This document shows positions 11,019-38,923 of a DNA stretch of 64,000 nt, piece by piece. The translations under genes were made by a program, and so were the position numbers. Below the pieces are notes generated by a model that was not told the origin of the DNA, ran no database searches, and saw nothing but the letters and a program-made list of their open reading frames with translations. Position 1 is the stretch's first letter. Every line of letters starts with the position of its first letter. The stretch comes from a virus (taxonomy: Duplodnaviria > Caudoviricetes): IMG/VR virus record IMGVR_UViG_3300027708_000013; one strand, written 5' to 3'.

Positions 11019-12937
<1,919 letters not shown>

Positions 12938-29542: not shown

Positions 29543-30829
29543 ATGCAAAAAATTGAACACACCTCCCATGCAGGTTTTACCTATGAGCCTAACAAAAAAT
29601 TAGGTTATTATCTAGTGGACAAGGAAGTTTACTACAACAAAATACAAGCACTGATTGCAGCTTCAAAAAAGAATATACCAATAAGATGGTTTTTTAACGA
29701 AGATGTATTTGTTAAATATCCCTGGCACATAGAACCTGAAGAAAACTTGCGAGAATTATATTGTCGACGTGCTCAACAATTACGTGATCAATACGACTAC
29801 ATTAGATTAGAGCTCAGTGGTGGTGCCGATAGTACCACTGTGGCCTATAGCTTTTTACTTAATAATATACATTTAGATGAGGTGGTGTTTCGATATCCCA
29901 AGACCGGTGACAAAGATGCATCCGGAGATCCGTCTAATACTCTGACCGAAAACACACTGAGCGAATGGGAGTTTGCGGCAAAGCCCTTGTTAAATTGGAT
30001 TGCCACCAATTATCCCAAAACAAAAATCACCGTACATGACTACAGTGAAGATATGATTACCGACGTCAACACCAAAGATGAATCATGGATTTTTCAAACC
30101 AGGCATTATTTACAGCCTAGTCATGCTAACAAATATAAACATATTATTAACAATAAAAATATTGCCGATCAAACACATAAAATGTGTGTAATTTATGGCA
30201 TAGATAAACCTAAAATATTTGTTAGGGACAATAAAGTTTTTTTATATTTTTCAGATGGATTAACTAACCACAGTAATCAAGTAGTCGACGAGTATACTAA
30301 TATTACCAACGAATTTTTTTATTGGACTCCAGATTTTCCCGAACTAATAGCTAAACAAGCACACGAAATAAAACGTTGGTTTAGTCTTCCGCATAATCAA
30401 CAAATGCAGGGAATACTACAATGGCCCAACAATGATGTTGCCAAACGTACTTTATACGAGTTGTTGGTAAAACGTATTGTGTATCCTGATTACGATTTTC
30501 ATACATTCCAAACTGCAAAGCCCACCACTAATATATCCTGTAAAATGGATTATTGGTTTCACATTAATTTTAAAGATACTAAACTATATTCGGTTTGGGA
30601 ATCTGGAATTAAATATTTTCTAGATAATATAGATACAAAATATGTATGTTTAATAAACGGAAACCCAGATGAAATACAGTCATTTCAAAGTCCGTATTAC
30701 TACATTGGAGATAGTATCATCGAGCAATCTAATAAGGGATTTAACACAAAATCCATATTGTTAGATCAACATCCAGACTCTACTAAAAAACATAGATATG
30801 TTATTAACGGCCAATTGGTAGTTTATTAA
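29543..30829 (+). CDS. PP-loop protein, paralog B (tandem duplicate of A)
   Basis: RLELSGGADSTTV; long near-identical DNA blocks shared with 28120-29430. Confidence 0.7.
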   Translation: MQKIEHTSHAGFTYEPNKKLGYYLVDKEVYYNKIQALIAASKKNIPIRWFFNEDVFVKYPWHIEPEENLRELYCRRAQQLRDQYDYIRLELSGGADSTTVAYSFLLNNIHLDEVVFRYPKTGDKDASGDPSNTLTENTLSEWEFAAKPLLNWIATNYPKTKITVHDYSEDMITDVNTKDESWIFQTRHYLQPSHANKYKHIINNKNIADQTHKMCVIYGIDKPKIFVRDNKVFLYFSDGLTNHSNQVVDEYTNITNEFFYWTPDFPELIAKQAHEIKRWFSLPHNQQMQGILQWPNNDVAKRTLYELLVKRIVYPDYDFHTFQTAKPTTNISCKMDYWFHINFKDTKLYSVWESGIKYFLDNIDTKYVCLINGNPDEIQSFQSPYYYIGDSIIEQSNKGFNTKSILLDQHPDSTKKHRYVINGQLVVY

Positions 30830-30830
30830 C

Positions 30831-30920
30831 TGGCGGAGAGTGTGAGATTCGAACTCACGATACAGTTGCCCATATGTCTGCTTAGTAGGCAGATGCCATC
30901 GTCCACTCGGCCAACTCTCC
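30831..30920 (-). tRNA. tRNA-Ser(ACT)
   Basis: Acceptor GGAGAGT/ACTCTCC+G+CCA, anticodon arm TCTGC-CTACTAA-GCAGA, long variable arm with GCAA loop, TTCGAAT T-loop. Confidence 0.85.
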
Positions 30921-30930
30921 TGAAGTTGTT

Positions 30931-31134
30931 TTACACTTCTACTGTGCCGTTTTGTATGGCCAACAGGGTTGAAATCAATGCATCGCTGTGTTGCAGTTCT
31001 GCACGATCTGCTGTTCTTTTATAAAGTGTTCTAGATTGTTGTGTGGCCGACAATATCATGTCGTATCTATTGCCGCCGGCGATTCTAACACATTTTTCAA
31101 TATCAATTTCAGTGCCTCTGCTGATTGGTTTCAT
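30931..31134 (-). CDS. rpoZ: RNA polymerase omega subunit (RpoZ)-like protein
   Basis: IEKCVRIAGGNRYDMILSATQQSR...LISTLLAIQNGTV aligns by eye with RpoZ [23 protein letters not shown]...[14 protein letters not shown]; AAGGA Shine-Dalgarno. Confidence 0.7.
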   Translation of the reverse strand: MKPISRGTEIDIEKCVRIAGGNRYDMILSATQQSRTLYKRTADRAELQHSDALISTLLAIQNGTVEV

Positions 31135-31159
31135 ACTGTTCCTTGTTCAAGTTGATTGA

Positions 31160-31446
31160 AGTACAACAGTTTGGGTACATGTATTTGCTTTACAACCGTG
31201 GACTGCTTGCCTTTGGAGAGCTACTCCTCTCGGCTTTGCAGACAAGTACCACCACCGTGCAAGCGGCTAAATGTCAACAAGTTTCAACAGACTCTCGGAC
31301 GTTTCCATGGCTTTTAAATTCTGGTGCCGCTTCGGGAATACCCGATATTGCACAATTTTCGAGCGACTCAAAGTCTTGCAATGCCACGTACTGCGCCTAC
31401 CACTGGTATCAAACGGGCGTCACCCCTGTACCCAAACTGTTGTACT
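31160..31446 (-). ncRNA. Unassigned ~287 nt structured ncRNA
   Basis: Perfect 19-20 bp terminal inverted repeat (31161-31179 vs 31427-31445), several internal stems, and its own promoter immediately upstream. Confidence 0.7.
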
Positions 31447-31455
31447 CTAGTTACT

Positions 31456-31484
31456 AGTGTAACATCTATCGCAATATGTGTCTA
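31456..31484 (-). promoter_or_regulatory. Sigma70-type promoter of the ncRNA-rpoZ-tRNA-Ser unit
   Basis: TAGACA-17-TACACT; the predicted start falls 1-3 nt before the ncRNA stem. Confidence 0.65.
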
Positions 31485-31603
31485 GCGTTTTTGATGGTTT
31501 TTGAGTCGGGAAAACCGTCAAACCCGGTGTCAACAGCCCATCCCCGGTTTCGTTGACAGCGGATGCTGATTAACAACCTTGCGGTGCGGGGTCAGCAACA
31601 ACT

Positions 31604-31678
31604 TGGTGGGCCAGGAAAGAATTGAACTTTCACTCCTTCGGTTATGAGCCGAACGCTTTACCATTAAGCTACTAGCCC
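31604..31678 (-). tRNA. tRNA (CAT), Ile2-like
   Basis: TTCGG-CTCATAA-CCGAA arm, GGGC start, A73, CCA; the Ile2 identity is inferred. Confidence 0.85.
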
Positions 31679-31684
31679 GTTCGA

Positions 31685-32296
31685 TTACATTGCAGGACCG
31701 TTTCCGGACTTAAAACCTACACTACCACCCTCTGCTTCAATGCGAGCAATAACATCTTCAAACAAGATAGGAGCAAAGTCTGGAAGTTGTTCTACGCAAA
31801 CGCAGTGGTATCTAACATCAATCTCATCGCTGTACAGAATTTCTCCTGTTCTAGCATCAATACCACGTGGTTTCATAACACGATTTGCGTGAGTATGTCC
31901 GTGAATGTTAACTCCGAATCGACCTAAACTATCACTGTGCAACGGAATATGACTGAGAATCATCCCGTCCATCACATGGTAGGCACGTAATTCTCTAAAG
32001 TACTGTCTGTACTCGTCGTCCCTAAAGATATCATGGTTACCGCGGATCAACACCTTGTCACCGTTGAGTCTAGCCAATGTGGCCAATGCCCGACGGTTGA
32101 TGACTACATCGCCCAAGTGATAAATCTTATCTGTGGGCTTAACTCTTTCGTTCCAAGACTTGACCATGGCTTCGTCCATTTCATCTGGATCAGTCCAAGG
32201 ACGCAGTTTTGTGACACCATCGTTACGTGTGAAGCGACATACACCTGCGTGTCCAAAGTGTGTATCGCTGACTAAAAATACTGCGGGCATATTCAA
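31685..32296 (-). CDS. Calcineurin-like metallophosphoesterase
   Basis: SDTHFGH, HLGDV, RGNHD, SHIPLH, HGHTH; promoter TTGACC-17-TATAAT at 32313-32341. Confidence 0.9.
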   Translation of the reverse strand: MNMPAVFLVSDTHFGHAGVCRFTRNDGVTKLRPWTDPDEMDEAMVKSWNERVKPTDKIYHLGDVVINRRALATLARLNGDKVLIRGNHDIFRDDEYRQYFRELRAYHVMDGMILSHIPLHSDSLGRFGVNIHGHTHANRVMKPRGIDARTGEILYSDEIDVRYHCVCVEQLPDFAPILFEDVIARIEAEGGSVGFKSGNGPAM

Positions 32297-32343
32297 CTCC
32301 TTTCTTTACAATATTATAACATGTTTGTGATTGCGGGTCAATG

Positions 32344-32421
32344 TGGAAGTGAGAGTCGGATTCGAACCGACGGGTTGACAGCTTTGCAGGCTGTTGCATT
32401 GGACCACTCTGCCATCTCACT
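32344..32421 (-). tRNA. tRNA-Cys(GCA)
   Basis: ACAGC-CTGCAAA-GCTGT, U73, CCA. Confidence 0.92.
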
Positions 32422-32429
32422 ACAGTTTT

Positions 32430-32503
32430 TGGCGAATCCCCAGGGAGTCGAACCCCGGCCGTCAGTTTTGGAGACTGAAATGCTACCGTAACACTTGGGA
32501 CTC
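32430..32503 (-). tRNA. tRNA-Trp(CCA)
   Basis: TCAGT-CTCCAAA-ACTGA, CCA end. Confidence 0.92.
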
Positions 32504-32508
32504 ATTAT

Positions 32509-32582
32509 TGGAGCGGAATACCAGAATCGAACTGGTGACTAGACGTTGGCAACGTTTCGTTTTACCATTAAACTAATCCCGC
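32509..32582 (-). tRNA. tRNA-Gly(GCC)
   Basis: GCGGGA start, loop TTGCCAA, U73, CCA. Confidence 0.92.
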
Positions 32583-32600
32583 ATGTTATTACTTATAGTG

Positions 32601-32676
32601 TGGCGCTCTCGACCGGATTCGAACCGGTGTACTCACCGTGAAAGGGTGATGTCCTAGGCCTCTAGACGACGGGAGC
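32601..32676 (-). tRNA. tRNA-Glu(TTC)
   Basis: TCACC-CTTTCAC-GGTGA, CCA. Confidence 0.92.
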
Positions 32677-32686
32677 ATAAAACTGG

Positions 32687-32799
32687 TGTTTGTGTTTGGC
32701 GCTTGAATCCACGGCAACCCTGACTCTTCATGGCCGGTCCTGACACGTGGTCGACTTTGGTCAGTATTTCGGTGTTCCATTGTAGTTGCTACACAAACA
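32687..32799 (-). ncRNA. tRNA-like RNA without a canonical anticodon arm or CCA
   Basis: Closing stem TGTTTGTGT/ACACAAACA; T-loop-like GGATTCAAGCGCC near the 3' end. Confidence 0.55.
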
Positions 32800-32820
32800 T
32801 AATCTTGACAAGATACTCTG

Positions 32821-32892
32821 AAGCGGGGGCTGGATTCGAACCAACGACCTTCAGGTTATGAGCCTGGCATGCTACCGCTACACTACCCCGCA
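32821..32892 (-). tRNA. tRNA (CAT), initiator-like, CCA not encoded
   Basis: TGCGGGG start with 1:72 mismatch; CCAGG-CTCATAA-CCTGA arm. Confidence 0.8.
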
Positions 32893-32926
32893 TCAGAATA
32901 TCCTATTTCTCTCTTACGCATAGACT

Positions 32927-33172
32927 TTAATCAAATGGTATTGGTTTTTCTGGTGTTGCTATCAACTCTTCTACTACAAATACGTCAAAATTCTTTTCAT
33001 CTTCTGGATGTTTTATACAGTCCACAAACCATCCAAACTTATAACGCCAATGATAAAATTGTCCTTCATCGGCGTTCCAACGAGCCTCTGTGGCATTACG
33101 GCATTGACCACGATAGTAAGCACCGTGGATCAAATCCTGTCGAGCAATCTTTGCCTGATATTGATCTTCCAT
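32927..33172 (-). CDS. Conserved phage hypothetical protein within the tRNA array
   Basis: Start MEDQYQ at 33172 after AAGGA; YYRGQCRNATEARW...HWRYKFG...HPEDE..FDVF. Confidence 0.75.
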   Translation of the reverse strand: MEDQYQAKIARQDLIHGAYYRGQCRNATEARWNADEGQFYHWRYKFGWFVDCIKHPEDEKNFDVFVVEELIATPEKPIPFD

Positions 33173-33199
33173 TATATTTTCCTTGTTGCTGTGTAGGCT

Positions 33200-33370
33200 C
33201 CGGCCACTTGCTGTCATACAAGCCCCGGAGTGGAATTCATCGTTAGCCATGTTCTCAGTCTGTAATGGCAGACAGTGTTGACCGATCAGGGCAATCAACC
33301 ACCCACTTGCGTCAGCAGAGCAAGTTACCCCCGATTCAAAGCTCGGCAACTTATGACAAAACTTGGCCGG
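33200..33370 (-). ncRNA. Unassigned ~171 nt multibranched RNA
   Basis: CCGGCCA/TGGCCGG plus TGTCATA/TATGACA closing helix; internal hairpins ACTTGC/GCAAGT, GTTGA/TCAAC, GTCTG/CAGAC. Confidence 0.6.
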
Positions 33371-33434
33371 CCCCACTAGTGGGATACCATTTAAACTGGG
33401 CTGTCTTTTCGCGTTATATCCCAGTACCATGACT

Positions 33435-33509
33435 TGGCGGTCTCAAGGAGTAACGATCTCCTTCTTCAGCAGTGACAGTGCTGTGTGCGTCCATGAACAC
33501 TTTGAGACC
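33435..33509 (-). tRNA. tRNA-Asp(GTC), non-canonical T-loop
   Basis: CAGCA-CTGTCAC-TGCTG; T-loop ATCGTTA; G73, CCA. Confidence 0.9.
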
Positions 33510-33598
33510 CAAATTAGTGACCCGGTTCGTAAACAGTATTGATTGATTTACAGGGGCGTCAGGCCTCCAATGGACTTTTTAGGGTGCCAATTCTTTTG

Positions 33599-33699
33599 AC
33601 TATATTGAAACACACTGTTGAGATTTCACTTTTCAAGTCAGGGTCCGGATGACCAAGCGCCGCTTCTCGCAGGTAGAAAACAATGTGCTTCAATATAGT
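33599..33699 (-). ncRNA. Unassigned RNA closed by a 21-bp helix
   Basis: ACTATATTGAAGCACATTGTT pairs with AACAGTGTGTTTCAATATAGT; the two non-Watson-Crick positions are G-U only on the minus strand. Confidence 0.6.
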
Positions 33700-33701
33700 A
33701 T

Positions 33702-33838
33702 GTTTGTGGTAAGGATTCGCACCTTACACCACGGTTGCCCTAAATTACTCGATGATAGTCTCAACCAGTGCGGCCGCACCTTCGAGTAGTTCCACCTTTC
33801 ACCCAACCGTATATACCTGTCTCTTATACGACACAAAC
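33702..33838 (-). ncRNA. tRNA-like RNA (~137 nt) with a large insert in place of the anticodon loop
   Basis: Acceptor-like GTTTGTG/CACAAAC, T-arm GTAAGG-TGCGAAT-CCTTAC, stem ACGGTT/AACCGT enclosing TACTCGA/TCGAGTA; no CCA. Confidence 0.65.
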
Positions 33839-33843
33839 TTACC

Positions 33844-33961
33844 ATATTAAAACTATATCAATATCTTCCTTCTCTGACAAGAAGGCGTTTCGCAGTGTGT
33901 CAGCACCACCGAATGTTGACTCCGATCAGGAGTATGGCACCCGTCGATATAATTTTAATAT
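33844..33961 (-). ncRNA. Unassigned RNA closed by an 18-bp helix
   Basis: TATTAAAATTATATCGA/TTGATATAGTTTTAATA with G-U pairs on the minus strand; internal hairpins ACTCC/GGAGT and CCTTCT/AGAAGG. Confidence 0.6.
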
Positions 33962-33964
33962 AGC

Positions 33965-34060
33965 GCCTTTCACAAGGCTTATATTTTGCTACTTGATTTG
34001 TTAAAGAACTGTAATTTCTTACTATACATGTATTATACGGTATTGTGAATTACCAGTCAA
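33965..34060 (-). promoter_or_regulatory. Internal promoter with boxA and GNRA hairpin (rrn/nut-like antitermination leader)
   Basis: TTGACT-17-TATAAT (34032-34060), GTTCTTTAACAA boxA-like (33998-34009), GCCTT-GTGA-AAGGC hairpin (33965-33978). Confidence 0.65.
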
Positions 34061-34093
34061 CCAAAATACTGTTGCATATTTACAACAAATTAT

Positions 34094-34185
34094 TGGCGGA
34101 AGGCAGAAGAGTCGAACTCCATCCCCGTTAGGAGAACCTGGTTTTCAAGGCCAGTCGCAGGACCATCCCCGCTGCATTACCTTCC
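34094..34185 (-). tRNA. tRNA-Ser(TGA) with 8/4 fold
   Basis: 8-bp acceptor GGAAGGTA/TGCCTTCC, 4-bp T-stem GGAG/CTTC, loop CTTGAAA, long variable arm, G73, CCA. Confidence 0.85.
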
Positions 34186-34191
34186 ATGTCT

Positions 34192-34276
34192 TGGTGGGAA
34201 TGGTGAGACTCGAACTCACACGCCTTGCGGCGGCGGCTTCTAAAACCGCTTCGGCTACCAGTTACGACACATTCCC
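34192..34276 (-). tRNA. tRNA-Leu(TAG)
   Basis: GCGGT-TTTAGAA-GCCGC, long variable arm, CCA. Confidence 0.92.
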
Positions 34277-34282
34277 GTTGTT

Positions 34283-34358
34283 TGGGGTGCTGTATGGGAC
34301 TCGAACCCATACTACGAGATCCACAATCTCGGGTGCTAACCGTTACACTAACGGCACC
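34283..34358 (-). tRNA. tRNA-His(GTG)
   Basis: CGAGA-TTGTGGA-TCTCG, G-1:C73, CCA. Confidence 0.92.
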
Positions 34359-34367
34359 ACGGTTCTT

Positions 34368-34442
34368 TGGTCCGGCCAGGAAGAATCGAACTTCCGTTTA
34401 GAGATTAGAAGTCTCCTGTATTTTCCACTATACGATGGCCAG
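34368..34442 (-). tRNA. tRNA-Arg(TCT)
   Basis: GAGA-CTTCTAA-TCTC, CCA. Confidence 0.9.
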
Positions 34443-34443
34443 T

Positions 34444-34528
34444 TGGTACGAGGGGAGAGATTCGAACTCTCATGCCTAACGGCGTCGGTGCTTAAAACCG
34501 GTGCGGCTACCTGTTTCGCCACCCTCGT
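34444..34528 (-). tRNA. tRNA-Leu(TAA)
   Basis: Loop TTTAAGC, long variable arm, CCA. Confidence 0.88.
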
Positions 34529-34534
34529 ATTGTT

Positions 34535-34608
34535 TGGTGCTCTTACCTGGTAACGATCCAGATTTTCCGCCTTACCAAGACGGTGTAATGCCTTTATACT
34601 ATAAGAGC
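34535..34608 (-). tRNA. tRNA-Thr(GGT), non-canonical T-loop
   Basis: CCGTC-TTGGTAA-GGCGG; T-loop ATCGTTA; CCA. Confidence 0.88.
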
Positions 34609-34609
34609 T

Positions 34610-34683
34610 TGGCAGGGGTACTAGGACTTGAACCTAGAACGACACAGTCAAAGTGTGTTGTGTTACCATTACACTATACCCCA
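34610..34683 (-). tRNA. tRNA-Gln(TTG)
   Basis: ACACA-CTTTGAC-TGTGT, CCA. Confidence 0.92.
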
Positions 34684-34689
34684 ATTGTT

Positions 34690-34763
34690 TGGTAGGCCCG
34701 GAAGGTAATGCTCCTTCTTTTGCGGATTAAAAGTCCGCTACTTTACTTTTAAGTTACAAGCCC
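34690..34763 (-). tRNA. tRNA-Lys(TTT), divergent D- and T-loops
   Basis: GCGGA-CTTTTAA-TCCGC; T-loop AGCATTA; D-loop lacks GG; CCA. Confidence 0.82.
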
Positions 34764-34769
34764 ATAATA

Positions 34770-34846
34770 TGGCCGGCCCTGACGGATTCGAACCGCCAAC
34801 TGCTGGTTTCGAAGACCAGAACTCTATCCAATTGAGCTAAGGGCCG
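34770..34846 (-). tRNA. tRNA-Arg(TCG)
   Basis: CTGGT-CTTCGAA-ACCAG, CCA. Confidence 0.92.
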
Positions 34847-34851
34847 ATGTT

Positions 34852-34926
34852 TGGTACCCATGGGTGGAATTGAACCACCGTCGCTGCGTTATCAACACAG
34901 AGCTAAACCACTCAGCTACACGGGTA
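34852..34926 (-). tRNA. tRNA-Ile(GAT)
   Basis: CTGTG-TTGATAA-CGCAG, CCA. Confidence 0.9.
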
Positions 34927-35002
34927 TGGTAGGAGATACCAGGTTCGAACTGATGACATTCTGTGTGTAAGACAGACGCTCTACCAACTGAGCTAATCTC
35001 CT
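34927..35002 (-). tRNA. tRNA-Val(TAC)
   Basis: TCTGT-CTTACAC-ACAGA, CCA. Confidence 0.92.
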
Positions 35003-35008
35003 ATTGTA

Positions 35009-35083
35009 TGGTCGGAGTAGAAAGAATCGAACTTTCGAAATCTCGCTCCCAAAGCGAGTGACATACCACTTGCCGATACTCCG
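35009..35083 (-). tRNA. tRNA-Pro(TGG)
   Basis: CTCGC-TTTGGGA-GCGAG, CCA. Confidence 0.92.
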
Positions 35084-35090
35084 ATAAAAC

Positions 35091-35173
35091 TGGTGCTGGA
35101 GGTGAGACTCGAACTCACGTAGGTTTCCCGACGGCTTACAAAACCGTTGCAATTGCCGCTATGCGACTCCAGC
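35091..35173 (-). tRNA. tRNA-Thr(TGT) with extended variable region
   Basis: ACGGT-TTTGTAA-GCCGT; variable region CGGGAAACCTAC; CCA. Confidence 0.88.
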
Positions 35174-35185
35174 GTTGAATTAATT

Positions 35186-35277
35186 TGGCAGTGAGTGTGG
35201 GATTTGAACCCACGGTACGTATTTCTACATACAACACCTTAGCAGGGTGCCGATTTAAGCCACTCATCCAACTCACT
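35186..35277 (-). tRNA. tRNA-Ser(GCT)
   Basis: GCACC-CTGCTAA-GGTGT, long variable arm, G73, CCA. Confidence 0.92.
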
Positions 35278-35286
35278 ATAATTTTT

Positions 35287-35361
35287 TGGTGGAAATAGGT
35301 AGATTCGAACTACCGACCTGCGCCGTATGAAGGCGATGCACTACCGCTGTGCTATATTTCC
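35287..35361 (-). tRNA. tRNA (CAT), probably elongator Met
   Basis: TCGCC-TTCATAC-GGCGC, CCA; Met versus Ile2 identity not resolved. Confidence 0.85.
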
Positions 35362-35363
35362 AA

Positions 35364-35437
35364 TGGAGCGGGATGAGAGAATCGAACTCTCAACTGGAGA
35401 TTGGAAATCTCTAATTTTACCATTAAACTAATCCCGC
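35364..35437 (-). tRNA. tRNA-Gly(TCC)
   Basis: GAGA-TTTCCAA-TCTC, U73, CCA. Confidence 0.92.
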
Positions 35438-35443
35438 ACGGTT

Positions 35444-35527
35444 TGGTGGAGAATACTGGGATCGAACCAGTCGTGCCTGCGGCGCCGGATTTACAGTCCA
35501 GTGCATCACCATTGATGCTTCTTCTCC
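35444..35527 (-). tRNA. tRNA-Tyr(GTA)
   Basis: CTGGA-CTGTAAA-TCCGG, long variable arm, CCA. Confidence 0.92.
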
Positions 35528-35533
35528 GTTACA

Positions 35534-35608
35534 TGGTGGAGGATGAGAGAATCGAACTCTCTTGACCTACGTGCAAGGCAGGCATAATATCCAGTATATG
35601 AATCCCCC
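35534..35608 (-). tRNA. tRNA-Ala(TGC)
   Basis: G3:U70; CCTGC-CTTGCAC-GTAGG; CCA. Confidence 0.92.
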
Positions 35609-35614
35609 ATAGTA

Positions 35615-35697
35615 TGGCTCCGCGGCTAGGGCTTGAACCTAGCTAGTCTTTCGACACAGATTAACAGTCTGCTGCCACACCCGGCGGCTCCCGCGGA
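35615..35697 (-). tRNA. tRNA-Asn(GTT) with extended variable arm
   Basis: GCAGA-CTGTTAA-TCTGT; variable arm GTC-GAAA-GAC; G73, CCA. Confidence 0.88.
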
Positions 35698-35754
35698 ATA
35701 ATTTATAACACACTCCGCCACGGCGATTTCACTCCCACCTGGTTCCAGAATGTG

Positions 35755-35849
35755 TATAGTCGAACACTCGGGAGTGAGACTTGCACTCACACAGCAGGCT
35801 CTCATCGTCCCGCATCCTAGCATTAGATCATCCCAAATGCTCGACTATA
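35755..35849 (-). ncRNA. tRNA-like domain on an extended 19-bp helix, no CCA
   Basis: TATAGTCGAGCATTTGGGA/TCCCGAGTGTTCGACTATA (G-U on minus); D-loop-like GATCTAATGCTAGGAT; T-arm GTGAG-TGCAAGT-CTCAC; 10-nt pseudo-anticodon loop. Confidence 0.62.
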
Positions 35850-35956
35850 TACTGATTTTTCACACTACACAAAGTGCTCCATCCTAGTATCCGCCCGTTC
35901 AACATGTTATCTTTATAGTGCCCTGTCATGGACCTCGTTTCCGAGACACTTAAAAC

Positions 35957-36028
35957 AAAAAACCCTGGAGTTGTTAGTTCCAGGGTCTTAGATAAAATAT
36001 AAAATGGATTAAATCTTATCTAAGACCC
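35957..36028 (-). terminator. Overlapping antiterminator/terminator (attenuator) ahead of the tRNA array
   Basis: Antiterminator GGGTCTTAGATAA (36016-36028) pairs with TTATCTAAGACCC (35983-35995). Terminator ACCCTGGA/TCCAGGGT+T6 (35957-35986) shares ACCC with it. Confidence 0.75.
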
Positions 36029-36153
36029 CCGGGTTCACGATTGCTGTTGCTGTCAATTGACATCGCTATCGTTGCAAACTGTAGCCAATTGGCCAACACG
36101 CCTGATGTTTTCGGCTGTGCATGTAAACAAGTGGTATAGTTTCTTAATTTCAT
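36016..36153 (-). CDS. Putative attenuator leader peptide (45 aa)
   Basis: Not in the ORF track. MKLRNYTTCLHAQPKTSGVLANWLQFATIAMSIDSNSNREPGGLR; starts about 10 nt after the TATACT box; the stop codon lies in the antiterminator 5' arm. Confidence 0.65.
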   Translation of the reverse strand: MKLRNYTTCLHAQPKTSGVLANWLQFATIAMSIDSNSNREPGGLR

Positions 36154-36162
36154 AATATATCT

Positions 36163-36191
36163 AGTATAGTTTATTTAGCATTTTGTGTCAA
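36163..36191 (-). promoter_or_regulatory. tRNA operon promoter
   Basis: TTGACA-17-TATACT, with an embedded CTAAATA late-type box. Confidence 0.75.
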
Positions 36192-36235
36192 GTATGTTTG
36201 GTTAAATAGTTGTTGCGTAAACGCAACAGATTTAA

Positions 36236-36826
36236 TCAAGTTGGTTTTTTCAGTAAAAAAGTCACAATACATCTATCTGTCAAATGGAACCAGTCTGAGC
36301 CAGGCTTTATTACTCCTTGTTCTGTTATTTCAAATAAATTTTTAAAATTATTCTGCCAACGGTTGACCTCTGCTTCAAAACTAAATTCGGGATGGTTGCT
36401 CCAGACTACTACCGATACAAAAACATAATCTTGAGTTAAACGATGTAATTCATTTATTGTGTGTGCTAATAATTCTTCATTTAATAAATGTATTACAAGA
36501 TTACACATTACAAAATCATACTGTCCGTCAGGATAATGATTGTATTTTTCAATGTAAGGATCATATCGTGTATACTGTATGTTGGGAAAATGCTGTTGAA
36601 GATTTTCAATAAATGTCGACTCACCGCACCCATAATCTAGTATAGTTTTAGGATTAATTTTAGGTATCAACTGCTGAATTGATACTCCTTCATGCAGGCG
36701 ATAATACTTGGATCTCCCCCAGTCCAGTGGATATTGATCGGCAAATTCTCCTGAGTAGATTTTTTTTATATATTTGCCTAGGTCATCAAATCCCAGGGTT
36801 TTCATTATGTTTCTTTTGAAGATCAT
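36236..36826 (-). CDS. Class I SAM-dependent methyltransferase
   Basis: ILDYGCGES motif I, YDPY, YDFVMC..VIH. Confidence 0.85.
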   Translation of the reverse strand: MIFKRNIMKTLGFDDLGKYIKKIYSGEFADQYPLDWGRSKYYRLHEGVSIQQLIPKINPKTILDYGCGESTFIENLQQHFPNIQYTRYDPYIEKYNHYPDGQYDFVMCNLVIHLLNEELLAHTINELHRLTQDYVFVSVVVWSNHPEFSFEAEVNRWQNNFKNLFEITEQGVIKPGSDWFHLTDRCIVTFLLKKPT

Positions 36827-37992
36827 CTATTACCCTGGTCTAGGTCAGGTGCATCTCCAAGACAGTAGAACGGACTTAAAAATCCAACGAATCCCACTGC
36901 ACAATCAAATTCTTTATTAAAATACTTGTCATCCACTGTGTTTTCAAGTAGCGTTAATCCTGCTTTCCAATTTATGTATGCTGTAGAATCTTTAAGATTT
37001 TTGTAGAACCAGTAGTCCATTTCTGGATAGAAATTATTAGTCGGCTTACTGACTTGGAATGTGGTTGGATCCCAATTGGTATAGATCAATGGTCTGATTA
37101 TATGTTCAAATGTAGTGCGTTGTGCTACAGAGTGATTTGGCCATCGTACCAAATGTTGTAAAAACTGGTTTTGTTTTGCGGAAAACCAGTTTTTAATTAT
37201 ATGTGCTTGTTTATGTAAAATTTCAGGAAAATCTGGGGTCCAATAGAAATATTCATTGGTCAAGTTGTTGTATTCGTACATTACGGAATTAGAATGGTTG
37301 GCTTGAAAGTCGATGAAATATGCATACCATTTTCCATCTTTAATACAAATCTTGGGTTTGTCAATGCCATAAAGAATACAAATACTTTTCCCTGTATCGG
37401 CTAATTTATGGTGACCATCAAAACTGATATTATCATGTTTAAATGCATGACTTGGCTGTAAAAAATCTTTTGCTCTAAAAATCCATGTTTCGTCGAGATC
37501 TGCATTGATCATGTCTTGGCTAAAATCGTGAACAGTAATTTTAGTAGCGGGGCTTACCTTGGCGATCCATTTTAATGCAGGTTTTGTGGCATACTCATAT
37601 TCACTTAGGAAGTTTTCTGGTTTACTATTATACGGATTTGGATCCATATTATGAGTACCTGATTCGGGATAACGAAATACTACTTCATCTAGAGTAATAT
37701 TGTTAAGTAAAAAACTAAACAGTATTGTAGTGGAATCTGCTCCCCCACTAAACTCTAGTCTAATGTAATCATATCTGTCTCGTAGTTGCTGTGCCCGTAA
37801 TCGATACATTTCGTTTATATCAACCTGTGGCTCTACTAGCCAATCAAGTGCACCAAACACGTCATTATTAAAATTCCAATGCGGAAATTGATTTGTTTTT
37901 GTTGCCAACATCAATGCATCAACTTTACTGTAGATGCATTGATCCCCTACAGTGTAAAACCCCAGCTTTGGATTGTTATCAAAGGTAAACAA
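36823..37992 (-). CDS. PP-loop protein, paralog C
   Basis: RLEFSGGADSTTI; LGFY.VG, LYGIDKP, NEYFYWTPDFPE shared with paralogs A and B. Confidence 0.7.
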   Translation of the reverse strand: MFTFDNNPKLGFYTVGDQCIYSKVDALMLATKTNQFPHWNFNNDVFGALDWLVEPQVDINEMYRLRAQQLRDRYDYIRLEFSGGADSTTILFSFLLNNITLDEVVFRYPESGTHNMDPNPYNSKPENFLSEYEYATKPALKWIAKVSPATKITVHDFSQDMINADLDETWIFRAKDFLQPSHAFKHDNISFDGHHKLADTGKSICILYGIDKPKICIKDGKWYAYFIDFQANHSNSVMYEYNNLTNEYFYWTPDFPEILHKQAHIIKNWFSAKQNQFLQHLVRWPNHSVAQRTTFEHIIRPLIYTNWDPTTFQVSKPTNNFYPEMDYWFYKNLKDSTAYINWKAGLTLLENTVDDKYFNKEFDCAVGFVGFLSPFYCLGDAPDLDQGNR

Positions 37993-38011: not shown

Positions 38012-38923
38012 TTATTTTAAAACAATTTCAGATGTAATTTGTTTCCAAATAAAATTTTGTTTATTAAACCATGGCTGTATGCGGTCGTCACTCATCTGAT
38101 TGAGAGACTGACAACGATGGGCAAAATATGCCTTATCCAGTGCAGGACTACGTCCGGCTTTTACCAAAATATCACGCCATTCTTTTGCCTTTTTGGCCGG
38201 CACCTGATTGGAGATGACCAGGTGCGATGGTGCATTCATTTGGCTTAGTATTTTTGGAAATCCATTACTGACTAGTGTTGGAATTTTATCAATGGCTTTT
38301 TCGCCGGTGATGCCTAGGTTATACAATTTATTTTTTTCTTCTGTGGCAGTTACATATTGTTCGCTGTCACCTATAAAAGCCACTGAGAAATCCGTAGTGC
38401 CACTCAGCGTTGCTAAAACAGCATCAGTTGTACTTTTAAAAGGAACCACAATCATATTGGGATATTTTTTAGCAACCTCGGTGGCCACTAAGTGAGTGGT
38501 AATACCCAGTCCACTGACAGAGATTGTCAGTGGCCGATCAGTGGGGACATCTTTCCACGATTTATATTTCTTAGCAAATACACCAAGCGGTGCATCGCAG
38601 TCTGGCATCAACTGCTGAAAATCTTCCACACGATGACTTTCGTTGGGGAAAAAGTTTGGACGAATCCAAAACGCAGAGCTGGTTGCTAAAATGGTATTTG
38701 GAGTTTTAGCAACATACTGAGCTGCAATACTAGCACCGGCACCAGGTTTGGTATCAAAAATAAATGTGTATTGGTCCTGAATCTTATTTGCTTCTTGTGC
38801 CAGTGTGCGACTAAAATTGGCGGCTATATCACTTGGGCTCCAGCCATATATAATTGTTACTGTTTCTCGGGCGTGAGTGGTTAATGTGAAAGTGGCTAGC
38901 AAAATTGCTAAAATTTTTTTCAT
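38012..38923 (-). CDS. Bug/TctC (tripartite tricarboxylate transporter) solute-binding protein
   Basis: Signal peptide; KPGAGASIAAQYV, SGLGITTHL, VPFKSTTDAV...LSG..D, IPTL...G; promoter TTGACT-17-TATAAT at 38950-38978. Confidence 0.85.
   Translation of the reverse strand: MKKILAILLATFTLTTHARETVTIIYGWSPSDIAANFSRTLAQEANKIQDQYTFIFDTKPGAGASIAAQYVAKTPNTILATSSAFWIRPNFFPNESHRVEDFQQLMPDCDAPLGVFAKKYKSWKDVPTDRPLTISVSGLGITTHLVATEVAKKYPNMIVVPFKSTTDAVLATLSGTTDFSVAFIGDSEQYVTATEEKNKLYNLGITGEKAIDKIPTLVSNGFPKILSQMNAPSHLVISNQVPAKKAKEWRDILVKAGRSPALDKAYFAHRCQSLNQMSDDRIQPWFNKQNFIWKQITSEIVLK

Follow-up and report, generated by a model that had tools for sequence, protein, structure and literature searches.

We analysed a 64,000-nucleotide stretch of viral DNA (IMG/VR record IMGVR_UViG_3300027708_000013, Caudoviricetes; hereafter, the window), in which a short transcription unit upstream of a long transfer RNA (tRNA) array combines a promoter, a leader open reading frame (ORF), two competing RNA stems and an intrinsic terminator, all of them, as well as the array and a conserved composite motif behind the terminator, located on the minus strand (Table 1). 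This element is probably a transcription attenuator of the ribosome-mediated leader-peptide type, which would control whether the polymerase reads through from an early sigma-70 promoter into the phage tRNA array. The amino-acid set of the leader tracks that of its own array, so that the element seems to sense, by way of feedback, the decoding capacity provided by the array. The first-pass annotation, made from the letters of the window, had proposed a general translation-stress switch; the leader attenuator part of that proposal is supported by the present analysis, whereas the array-matched amino-acid set suggests a feedback sensor and not a sensor of stress alone. Anticodon nucleases and toxins as triggers are speculation.

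The promoter is the top promoter-like site between positions 30000 and 38000, tied at 11/12 consensus matches with two others. The leader ATG lies 9 nt past the −10 element and the Shine-Dalgarno (SD) sequence is absent, so that the mRNA is predicted to be leaderless or near-leaderless. The 45 codons specify 20 different amino acids with 35 different codons, including each of the Thr codons ACC, ACT, ACA and ACG once and a single Cys, and show no run or enrichment of any single regulatory codon. The stop codon falls inside the 5' arm of the antiterminator, 29 nt ahead of the terminator arm, and the sequence ACCC (35986-35983) is common to the 3' arm of the antiterminator and the 5' arm of the terminator, which has an 8-bp stem. 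The antiterminator segment (83 nt) has a folding energy of −30.2 kcal/mol (z = −5.9), which none of 200 shuffles reaches, and when the entire 205-nt leader is folded, the minimum-energy structure contains the antiterminator and not the terminator. Pfam and PHROGs give no family for the leader peptide, and neither the leader nor the 260-nt RNA behind it matches a known leader or non-coding RNA family in Rfam. A permissive Rfam scan of positions 30000-37000 found none of the amino-acid operon leader families (Trp, His, Thr, Leu and Phe leaders); its sole hit there, to the trpB motif at 35952-36026, was at chance level (E = 0.89).

These elements had been described in the first-pass annotation, and its account of them stands. 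The sigma-70 promoter at 36163-36191 and the 45-codon ORF at 36153-36016, with its 20 amino acids, 35 codons and one of each Thr codon, were recovered as described; the 13-bp stem over the stop, the ACCC overlap and the 8-bp terminator followed by T6 (the last T of the stem plus T5) agree base for base; and the tRNAs downstream of the terminator were found by ARAGORN, with three more from Rfam. The three comparative checks that the annotation named likewise gave positive results: about 50 related contigs have the module upstream of a tRNA array, covariation is present in both the antiterminator and the terminator, and the amino-acid completeness of the leaders is far above shuffled, proteome, uniform and neutral-drift controls.

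Conservation of the module in related contigs

The family was found by a scan with the terminator alone as the pattern (100 viral contig stretches), which yielded 57 distinct modules from uncultured phages, in 22 clusters at 50% peptide identity, with a mean between-cluster identity of 25%. The order of elements is constant, namely, a promoter, a short ORF of 33-67 codons, a stop codon 18-33 nt before the terminator, and the terminator; a sigma-70-type promoter heads the module in 51 of the 57 cases. Nearly all modules with at least 500 nt of downstream sequence are followed by a tRNA array, the first tRNA being located at 210-1700 nt, the exceptions being L058 and L075 (no tRNA array within 840-1560 nt). 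In L017, the leader of the window recurs at 91% nucleotide identity with identical stems; its ORF is intact there despite four replacements, several synonymous changes and an indel of 3 nt that keeps the frame.

In L021-L023, L031, L045, L052 and other loci, an ordinary protein gene ends in the same type of terminator, which is therefore a generic element that recurs in this phage group. The protein-gene version has the form ACCC..G.-ACTAAAAAC-.C..GGGT followed by a T-tract, and the conserved protein upstream of it ends in ..GFKL(T/S)T. A scan with the promoter pattern retrieved only unrelated phages that share the promoter and also have leaderless ORFs. In these unrelated contigs, the pattern TTGACA-..GATAAATAAA.TATAAT occurs at L018 1322-1351, L019 3133-3162 and L020 11385-11414; in L018 and L020, an ATG lies 6 nt past the −10 element and opens different leaderless ORFs, and the L019 sequence stops soon after the promoter, with no ATG.

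Evidence that the leader is coding

The leader frame is open in 57/57 modules, and the other two frames average 3.4 and 2.9 stops. Among 20 independent close pairs of leaders, differences by codon position number 85/91/132, and the ratio of non-synonymous to synonymous differences (pN/pS) is 0.41. In 38 of the 51 modules with a recognisable promoter, the ATG is located 6-11 nt past the −10 element (31 modules at 6-7 nt, the window and 3 others at 9 nt, and a further 3 at 10-11 nt), which is where a leaderless mRNA would begin, and most of the starts may accordingly be read as leaderless. The remaining 13 modules have a leader of 22-96 nt; in about 8 of these, an AAGGA-like SD sequence precedes the ATG, and in 5 (the L035 group), there is an additional upstream mini-ORF and no clear SD sequence. 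Conservation of the ORF through changes in the mode of initiation is hard to reconcile with a non-coding RNA. Several independent signs thus point to translation of the leader.

The proposed RNA switch across the family

In joint folds of the terminator 5' arm and the 80 nt that precede it, an average of 6.4 of the 8 arm bases paired upstream, compared to 3.5 in shuffles (mean z = −3.5). The common form of the antiterminator consists of an outer helix, in which (C)AGGGTCC inside the ORF pairs with GGACCC(TG), and a middle helix of GAAGG with CTTC, the stop codon being located in the apical hairpin. Variable positions change in concert: the pair just before ACCC is either G-C (43 modules) or A-T (7), the one next to it on the outside either G-C (34) or A-T (9), and arm position +4 either T-A (33) or C-G (8). 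In an untuned MAFFT alignment of 32 representatives, the double changes and the covariation score were above all 500 shuffles and all slid controls, and the terminator was 100% paired in 32/32 representatives, with 3 compensatory pairs. Some positions show three-way covariation that involves the ORF strand and both terminator arms, for example, CCTAGGG/CCCTAGG/CCTAGGG in L007 vs CCTGGGG/CCCCAGG/CCTGGGG in L015, where the change in the ORF strand is synonymous (Leu).

In 22/22 clusters, the native 5' half pairs more stably with its own 3' half than with the 3' halves of other clusters, by about 6 kcal/mol. The mean difference between the antiterminator and terminator states is −0.09 kcal/mol (interquartile range −1.6 to +0.9), so that the two states are nearly isoenergetic, as required of a switch that is decided kinetically. 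Judging by geometry, the end of the ORF appears to be placed such that a finishing ribosome would disable the antiterminator and not the terminator.

Amino-acid completeness of the leaders

By itself, the leader of the window is mildly to moderately unusual: given the composition of the phage proteome, the chance of 20/20 amino acids in 45 residues is about P = 0.024. The significance comes from the family. The 57 leaders (mean length 43.5 residues) contain on average 18.82 distinct amino acids, with all 20 present in 17 and at least 19 in 37. The corresponding controls gave 17.04 ± 0.17 for the phage proteome composition, 16.39 ± 0.23 for windows of real proteins and 17.76 ± 0.16 for perfectly uniform usage, and 2492 other short ORFs from the same loci average 15.94 distinct amino acids, 0.44% of them being complete. 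At the cluster level, 11/22 representatives are complete and the mean is 19.23. Had the leaders drifted neutrally from an ancestor with all 20 amino acids, 17.1-17.5 distinct ones (maximum 18.2) would be expected at the observed divergence. Rare residues shift position, for instance, Cys is N-terminal to the conserved Trp in 7 clusters and C-terminal in 8; it is the presence of these residues, and not their position, that is maintained. The codons of the leaders are diverse as well (0.76 distinct per codon vs 0.64 ± 0.075 in gene windows), and codon adaptation of the leaders is below that of genes.

The excess of diversity is confined to the part of the leader in which a stalled ribosome would be sensed. 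The first ~31 codons contain 16.74 distinct amino acids vs 15.31 ± 0.18 expected, and the last ~12 codons show no excess (8.81 vs 8.92). In the window, the predicted sensing part (approximately, codons 1-36), the boundary of which follows from a ribosome footprint of about 12-15 nt, contains 19/20 amino acids; Glu, at codon 40, is outside it. Because Glu is confined to the leader tail in 37/57 leaders, the sensor would cover nearly all amino acids and not strictly all.

Correspondence between leaders and tRNA arrays, and a second leader family

We compared leaders and arrays in 27 modules that are followed by 12 or more tRNAs. Of the 29 amino acids that are absent from a leader, 24 also have no tRNA in the array of the same module (odds ratio 16); when leaders were paired with the arrays of other clusters, the number was 14.6 ± 2.7 (P = 0.0002). 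The window has a single module, whose array, with three tRNAs that only Rfam detects, serves all amino acids but Phe, and whose leader contains all 20.

Some loci carry a second family of shorter leaders (Table 1), which are leaderless, 25-32 codons long, end in ..RGLC.. and follow the same antiterminator/terminator logic; most contain Y-E..Y-E.D. The antiterminator of this family is formed by GGTCTTTG pairing with CAAAGACC, followed by a terminator of its own. Next come a promoter of the form TAGACA-17-TAnAnT and mostly tRNA-Glu, Tyr and Asp: in 6 of the 8 loci with downstream sequence, the sub-array is Glu-Tyr-Asp, and in the rest it is Glu-Asp and Leu-Leu-Glu-Tyr. In L037, L065 and L109, the second-family leader is located upstream of first-family modules whose own leaders lack Asp and Tyr.

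Proposed mechanism

We infer the timing, the regulatory sign and the physiological trigger from this anatomy as follows. The transcript would begin at the AUG or a few bases earlier, and a ribosome would translate the 45-codon leader. When decoding is fast, the ribosome would stand at the last codons or the stop while the polymerase makes the terminator, and with the 5' half of the antiterminator thus occupied, the terminator would form and transcription would end at about position 35957. In the window, a finishing ribosome would cover the whole 5' arm, and in most relatives, the inner two thirds, which would keep the outer strands apart. The terminator would still form because the stop is 19-33 nt before its arm, too far for masking by the ribosome. 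If, on the other hand, the ribosome were delayed within approximately the first 31-36 codons, or were not loaded, the 5' arm would pair with the ACCC-containing 3' arm, and the antiterminator, being transcribed first, would block the terminator and let the polymerase continue into the tRNA genes. The claim of the first-pass annotation that a stall at any earlier codon frees the antiterminator would therefore hold for about the first 31-36 codons and fail for the last 9-13, where the stalled ribosome would itself cover the antiterminator.

The phage probably makes more tRNAs when ribosomes decode slowly. Given that the leader has all or nearly all of the amino acids served by the array, a shortage of any of the respective charged tRNAs would be expected to raise tRNA synthesis, and the products of the array would relieve the delay, a homeostatic feedback in which tRNA supply is governed as amino-acid synthesis is by attenuators of the trp, his and thr type. 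Tentatively, and with confidence just short of an even balance, we extend this scheme to modular 'pangram' attenuators, each with an amino-acid repertoire tuned to the tRNA sub-array that it gates, whereby the phage would gauge decoding separately for each amino acid and induce the block that brings relief. If so, the shortages sensed could include those caused by host defences that cleave tRNA.

Alternative explanations

It is unlikely that the element is a general on/off sensor of translation without tRNA specificity, in which completeness is secondary and the antiterminator would form upon any failure of ribosome loading or elongation, be it through host shut-off, a defence aimed at ribosomes, or antibiotics. 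Such a sensor would fit the observation that untranslated RNA favours or equals the antiterminator, so that the absence of a ribosome would also give read-through, the presence of transfer-messenger RNA (tmRNA) genes in the same region of relatives, and the induction of a cyanobacterial tRNA array under impaired translation (PMC8421152), but it leaves unexplained the diversity above that of uniform usage, the restriction of the excess to the sensing part, and the tracking of leader-missing amino acids with array-missing tRNAs. The same mirroring of the array in leader composition, and the presence of an array behind the module in nearly every locus of sufficient length, speak against an early gene that stands alone, encodes a small functional protein and ends in a terminator of its own, where the array would be transcribed from other signals and the stem would stabilise the 3' end. 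Although the leaders have some conserved peptide motifs and pN/pS below 1, although an ordinary protein gene ends in the same type of terminator and although the post-terminator motif might be a promoter, completeness is maintained at ~25% between-cluster identity, the peptide matches no Pfam or PHROG family, and the stem is mutually exclusive, isoenergetic and co-varying with the terminator, which makes a stand-alone gene quite improbable.

Regulation of the opposite sign, with leader translation promoting read-through by coupling, or no regulation at all, with the element serving for processing or stability of the 5' leader of the array, would gain from the position of the outer antiterminator strand just beyond the footprint of the terminating ribosome in most relatives and from the fact that timing is an assumption. 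We consider it very improbable, given that the stop is too far (19-33 nt) from the terminator 5' arm for masking, that the stop of the window is inside the antiterminator arm, and that the bistable, co-varying design fits a switch. Finally, the leader could be a non-coding RNA, either a small RNA (sRNA) or a structured 5' leader, with an incidental open frame; sRNAs derived from attenuators are known (PMC6614838) and the window has no SD sequence. Such an RNA is exceedingly improbable, however, because the frame is open in 57/57 diverged versions and the others are closed, indels are in frame, third-position changes are in excess with pN/pS of 0.41, and the ATG is either at the start of transcription or, in modules with a leader instead, preceded in ~8/13 cases by an AAGGA-like SD sequence.

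Several observations weigh against the attenuator with an array-matched leader that we favour. The match does not extend to codons: the correspondence of leader codons with the anticodons of the own array is not significant (0.61 vs 0.58). The outermost antiterminator strand is 21-25 nt upstream of the stop in most relatives, just beyond the footprint of a terminating ribosome, so that blocking of this strand there would depend on a steric argument; the window, with the stop inside the arm, is the cleaner case. The peptide motifs A-Y-W-S and N-D-R-T-P-E are conserved, perhaps owing to some function that the peptide or the RNA has. The post-terminator motif could be a promoter for a phage-modified polymerase that bypasses the attenuator. 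Leader translation, termination and read-through are all deduced from sequence, and the host is presupposed to translate leaderless mRNA. Near-identical sequence is present in two lake metatranscriptome runs, as sparse short contigs only, from coding and non-coding parts alike; the sole contig across the terminator (35870-36019, run X10) is indistinguishable from carried-over DNA and does not count as evidence of read-through because the same run has sparse contigs throughout the phage. The sequences of the modules are related, and the counts are not fully independent; cluster-level tests were used to limit the effect of kinship.

Comparison with known systems

The leaders of the enterobacterial amino-acid operons (trpL, hisL, thrL, leuL, pheL and the ilv leaders) are the classical ribosome-mediated attenuators. 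Like the phage module, they have a short ORF close to the promoter and, upstream of the regulated genes, an intrinsic terminator whose 5' arm overlaps an antiterminator; the position of the ribosome decides the fold, and the product of the regulated genes relieves the stall (feedback), as would be the case in the phage. However, the enterobacterial leaders have runs of regulatory codons, whereas the phage leaders have all or nearly all 20 amino acids, about once or twice each; the 1:2, 2:3, 3:4 pairing scheme is replaced in the phage by two competing hairpins; the phage start is predicted to be leaderless; and the phage ORF runs into the antiterminator and would regulate phage tRNAs instead of biosynthetic enzymes.

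Leaderless polycysteine short ORFs of mycobacteria are cysteine-responsive attenuators (bioRxiv 10.1101/834739). The phage module would resemble them in having as its first cistron a leaderless short ORF through whose translation the operon downstream is controlled, but they are enriched in Cys and precede cysteine-related genes, in contrast to the near-complete amino-acid set, explicit terminator/antiterminator and tRNA genes of the phage. In Anabaena sp. PCC 7120, a horizontally mobile array of about 23 tRNAs is expressed at a low level and induced when translation is impaired (PMC8421152), as the phage array would be. The Anabaena array is cellular, not viral, and part of a host stress regulon; the words leader peptide, attenuator and terminator have 0 occurrences in the text of that paper (PMC8421152). 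In the stall-sensing leader peptides of resistance genes, of the erm, cat and tylosin-inducible yxjB types (PMC6851288), a stall on the leader ORF remodels the downstream RNA and turns expression on, as proposed for the phage, in response to the state of translation and not to one metabolite; these leaders combine a specific arrest peptide with a drug, whereas in the phage there is no conserved arrest motif, it is the composition that is conserved, and the output is tRNA transcription.

Full-text literature searches found no description of a leader-peptide attenuator before phage tRNA genes or of a leader with all amino acids. The reasons for which phages have large tRNA sets, and the way they use them, are mostly debated with reference to codon usage, degradation of host tRNAs and anticodon nucleases. 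If correct, the attenuator would offer a mechanism of on-demand tRNA supply, with tRNA transcription coupled to the speed of decoding, and would widen attenuation both in what is sensed, from one amino acid to almost all, and in what is regulated, tRNA genes instead of enzymes. As a genetic part, compact and portable, it would also report translation capacity, either global or for particular amino acids.

The tRNA array and the RNA between terminator and array

With ARAGORN, the window has 24 tRNAs, of which the first is at 35697, and Rfam adds 3. No sigma-70-like promoter was found on the minus strand between the terminator and position 34060.

Table 1 Features of the attenuator region in the window and loci of the second leader family.
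Feature	Position	Strand	Details
Sigma-70-type promoter	36163..36191	-	11/12 consensus matches; -35 TTGACA 36191-36186, spacer 17, -10 TATACT 36168-36163
Leader ORF	36016..36153	-	45 codons + TAA; ATG at 36153, stop 36018-36016
Predicted sensing part of leader, ~codons 1-36	36046..36153	-	a stall here would leave the antiterminator 5' arm free
Antiterminator stem-loop	35983..36028	-	perfect 13 bp, 20-nt loop; 5' arm GGGTCTTAGATAA 36028-36016 (contains stop TAA 36018-36016), loop 36015-35996, 3' arm TTATCTAAGACCC 35995-35983; homologues in relatives with co-varying arms
Intrinsic terminator	35952..35986	-	ACCCTGGA 35986-35979, loop ACTAACAAC, TCCAGGGT 35969-35962, then T5-G-T4
Conserved composite after terminator	35891..35944	-	hairpin with loop AACGAGG, then GCACTATAAAG, then AAC-GGGCGG
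First block of tRNA array	34098..35697	-	16 ARAGORN tRNAs + 3 Rfam-only; ARAGORN, Rfam
Rfam-only tRNAs	34693-34763, 35447-35527, 34098-34185	-	anticodons by eye: Lys(UUU), Tyr(GUA), probably Ser(UGA)
Second-family leader loci	L004 10186-10400; L010 12520-12740; L013 11745-11950; L037, L065, L109, L126, L144, L163, L188

The composite behind the terminator is present in 41/53 modules, either directly past the terminator or, in many relatives, past a small ORF, and its stems co-vary. Across relatives, it consists of a hairpin with the 7-nt loop AACG(A/C)G(G/A), a second hairpin with the loop (G/A)CAC..AAAC, and then AAAC-GGGCGG; the second loop loosely resembles an rrn boxA. The composite could serve in processing, protein binding or antitermination, or as a phage-specific promoter. 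In the case of a promoter read by a phage-modified polymerase, control by the attenuator would be limited to early transcription; an antitermination or processing signal would favour transcription arriving from the leader promoter. The sequence CACTATAAA after the terminator was considered as a sigma-70 −10 element and rejected, the final T and the −35 element being missing in most relatives.

Between the GGGCGG motif and the first tRNA, there is a conserved structured RNA of ~190 nt (window 35700-35890, minus strand), which has 92% identity in L017, is recognisable in L005, L007, L025 and others, and has no match among Rfam families. About half of the relatives, but not the window, carry an SD-led ORF of 54-70 codons between the attenuator and the RNA genes (e.g. 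L017 10450-10653 and L005 8612-8776), with motifs such as ..IDY.KLN.QIV.. and ..NKIDRA.. and no Pfam or PHROG match. Further downstream, long structured non-coding stretches are located between tRNA blocks (window 33500-34030 and 31160-31600, minus strand), preceded by promoter-like sites at 34060, 33880 and 31484.

Source of the window and neighbouring genes

Freshwater metagenomes contain the sequence of the window, and its IMG/VR relatives are contigs of up to 354 kb; the source is an uncultured freshwater jumbo phage. The INPHARED phage collection contains no relative of the region or of the neighbouring gene for a 389-amino-acid protein (megablast, blastn, tblastn). The proteins encoded in the window include GroEL, a TctC-like protein and many of unknown function, the phage-encoded GroEL (Cpn60) and the TctC/Bug-like periplasmic binding protein being located at 11019-12638 and 38012-38923, respectively. 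The TctC/Bug-like protein and the permuted tmRNAs of relatives are hints of a betaproteobacterial host. ARAGORN finds no tmRNA gene in the window; in relatives, it finds permuted (two-piece) tmRNA genes at L002 9217-9657, L003 9262-9670, L010 8273-8718 and L013 9424-9761, which are located ~2 kb downstream of the gene for the 389-amino-acid protein and encode plausible tags, e.g. ANDEQFALAA.

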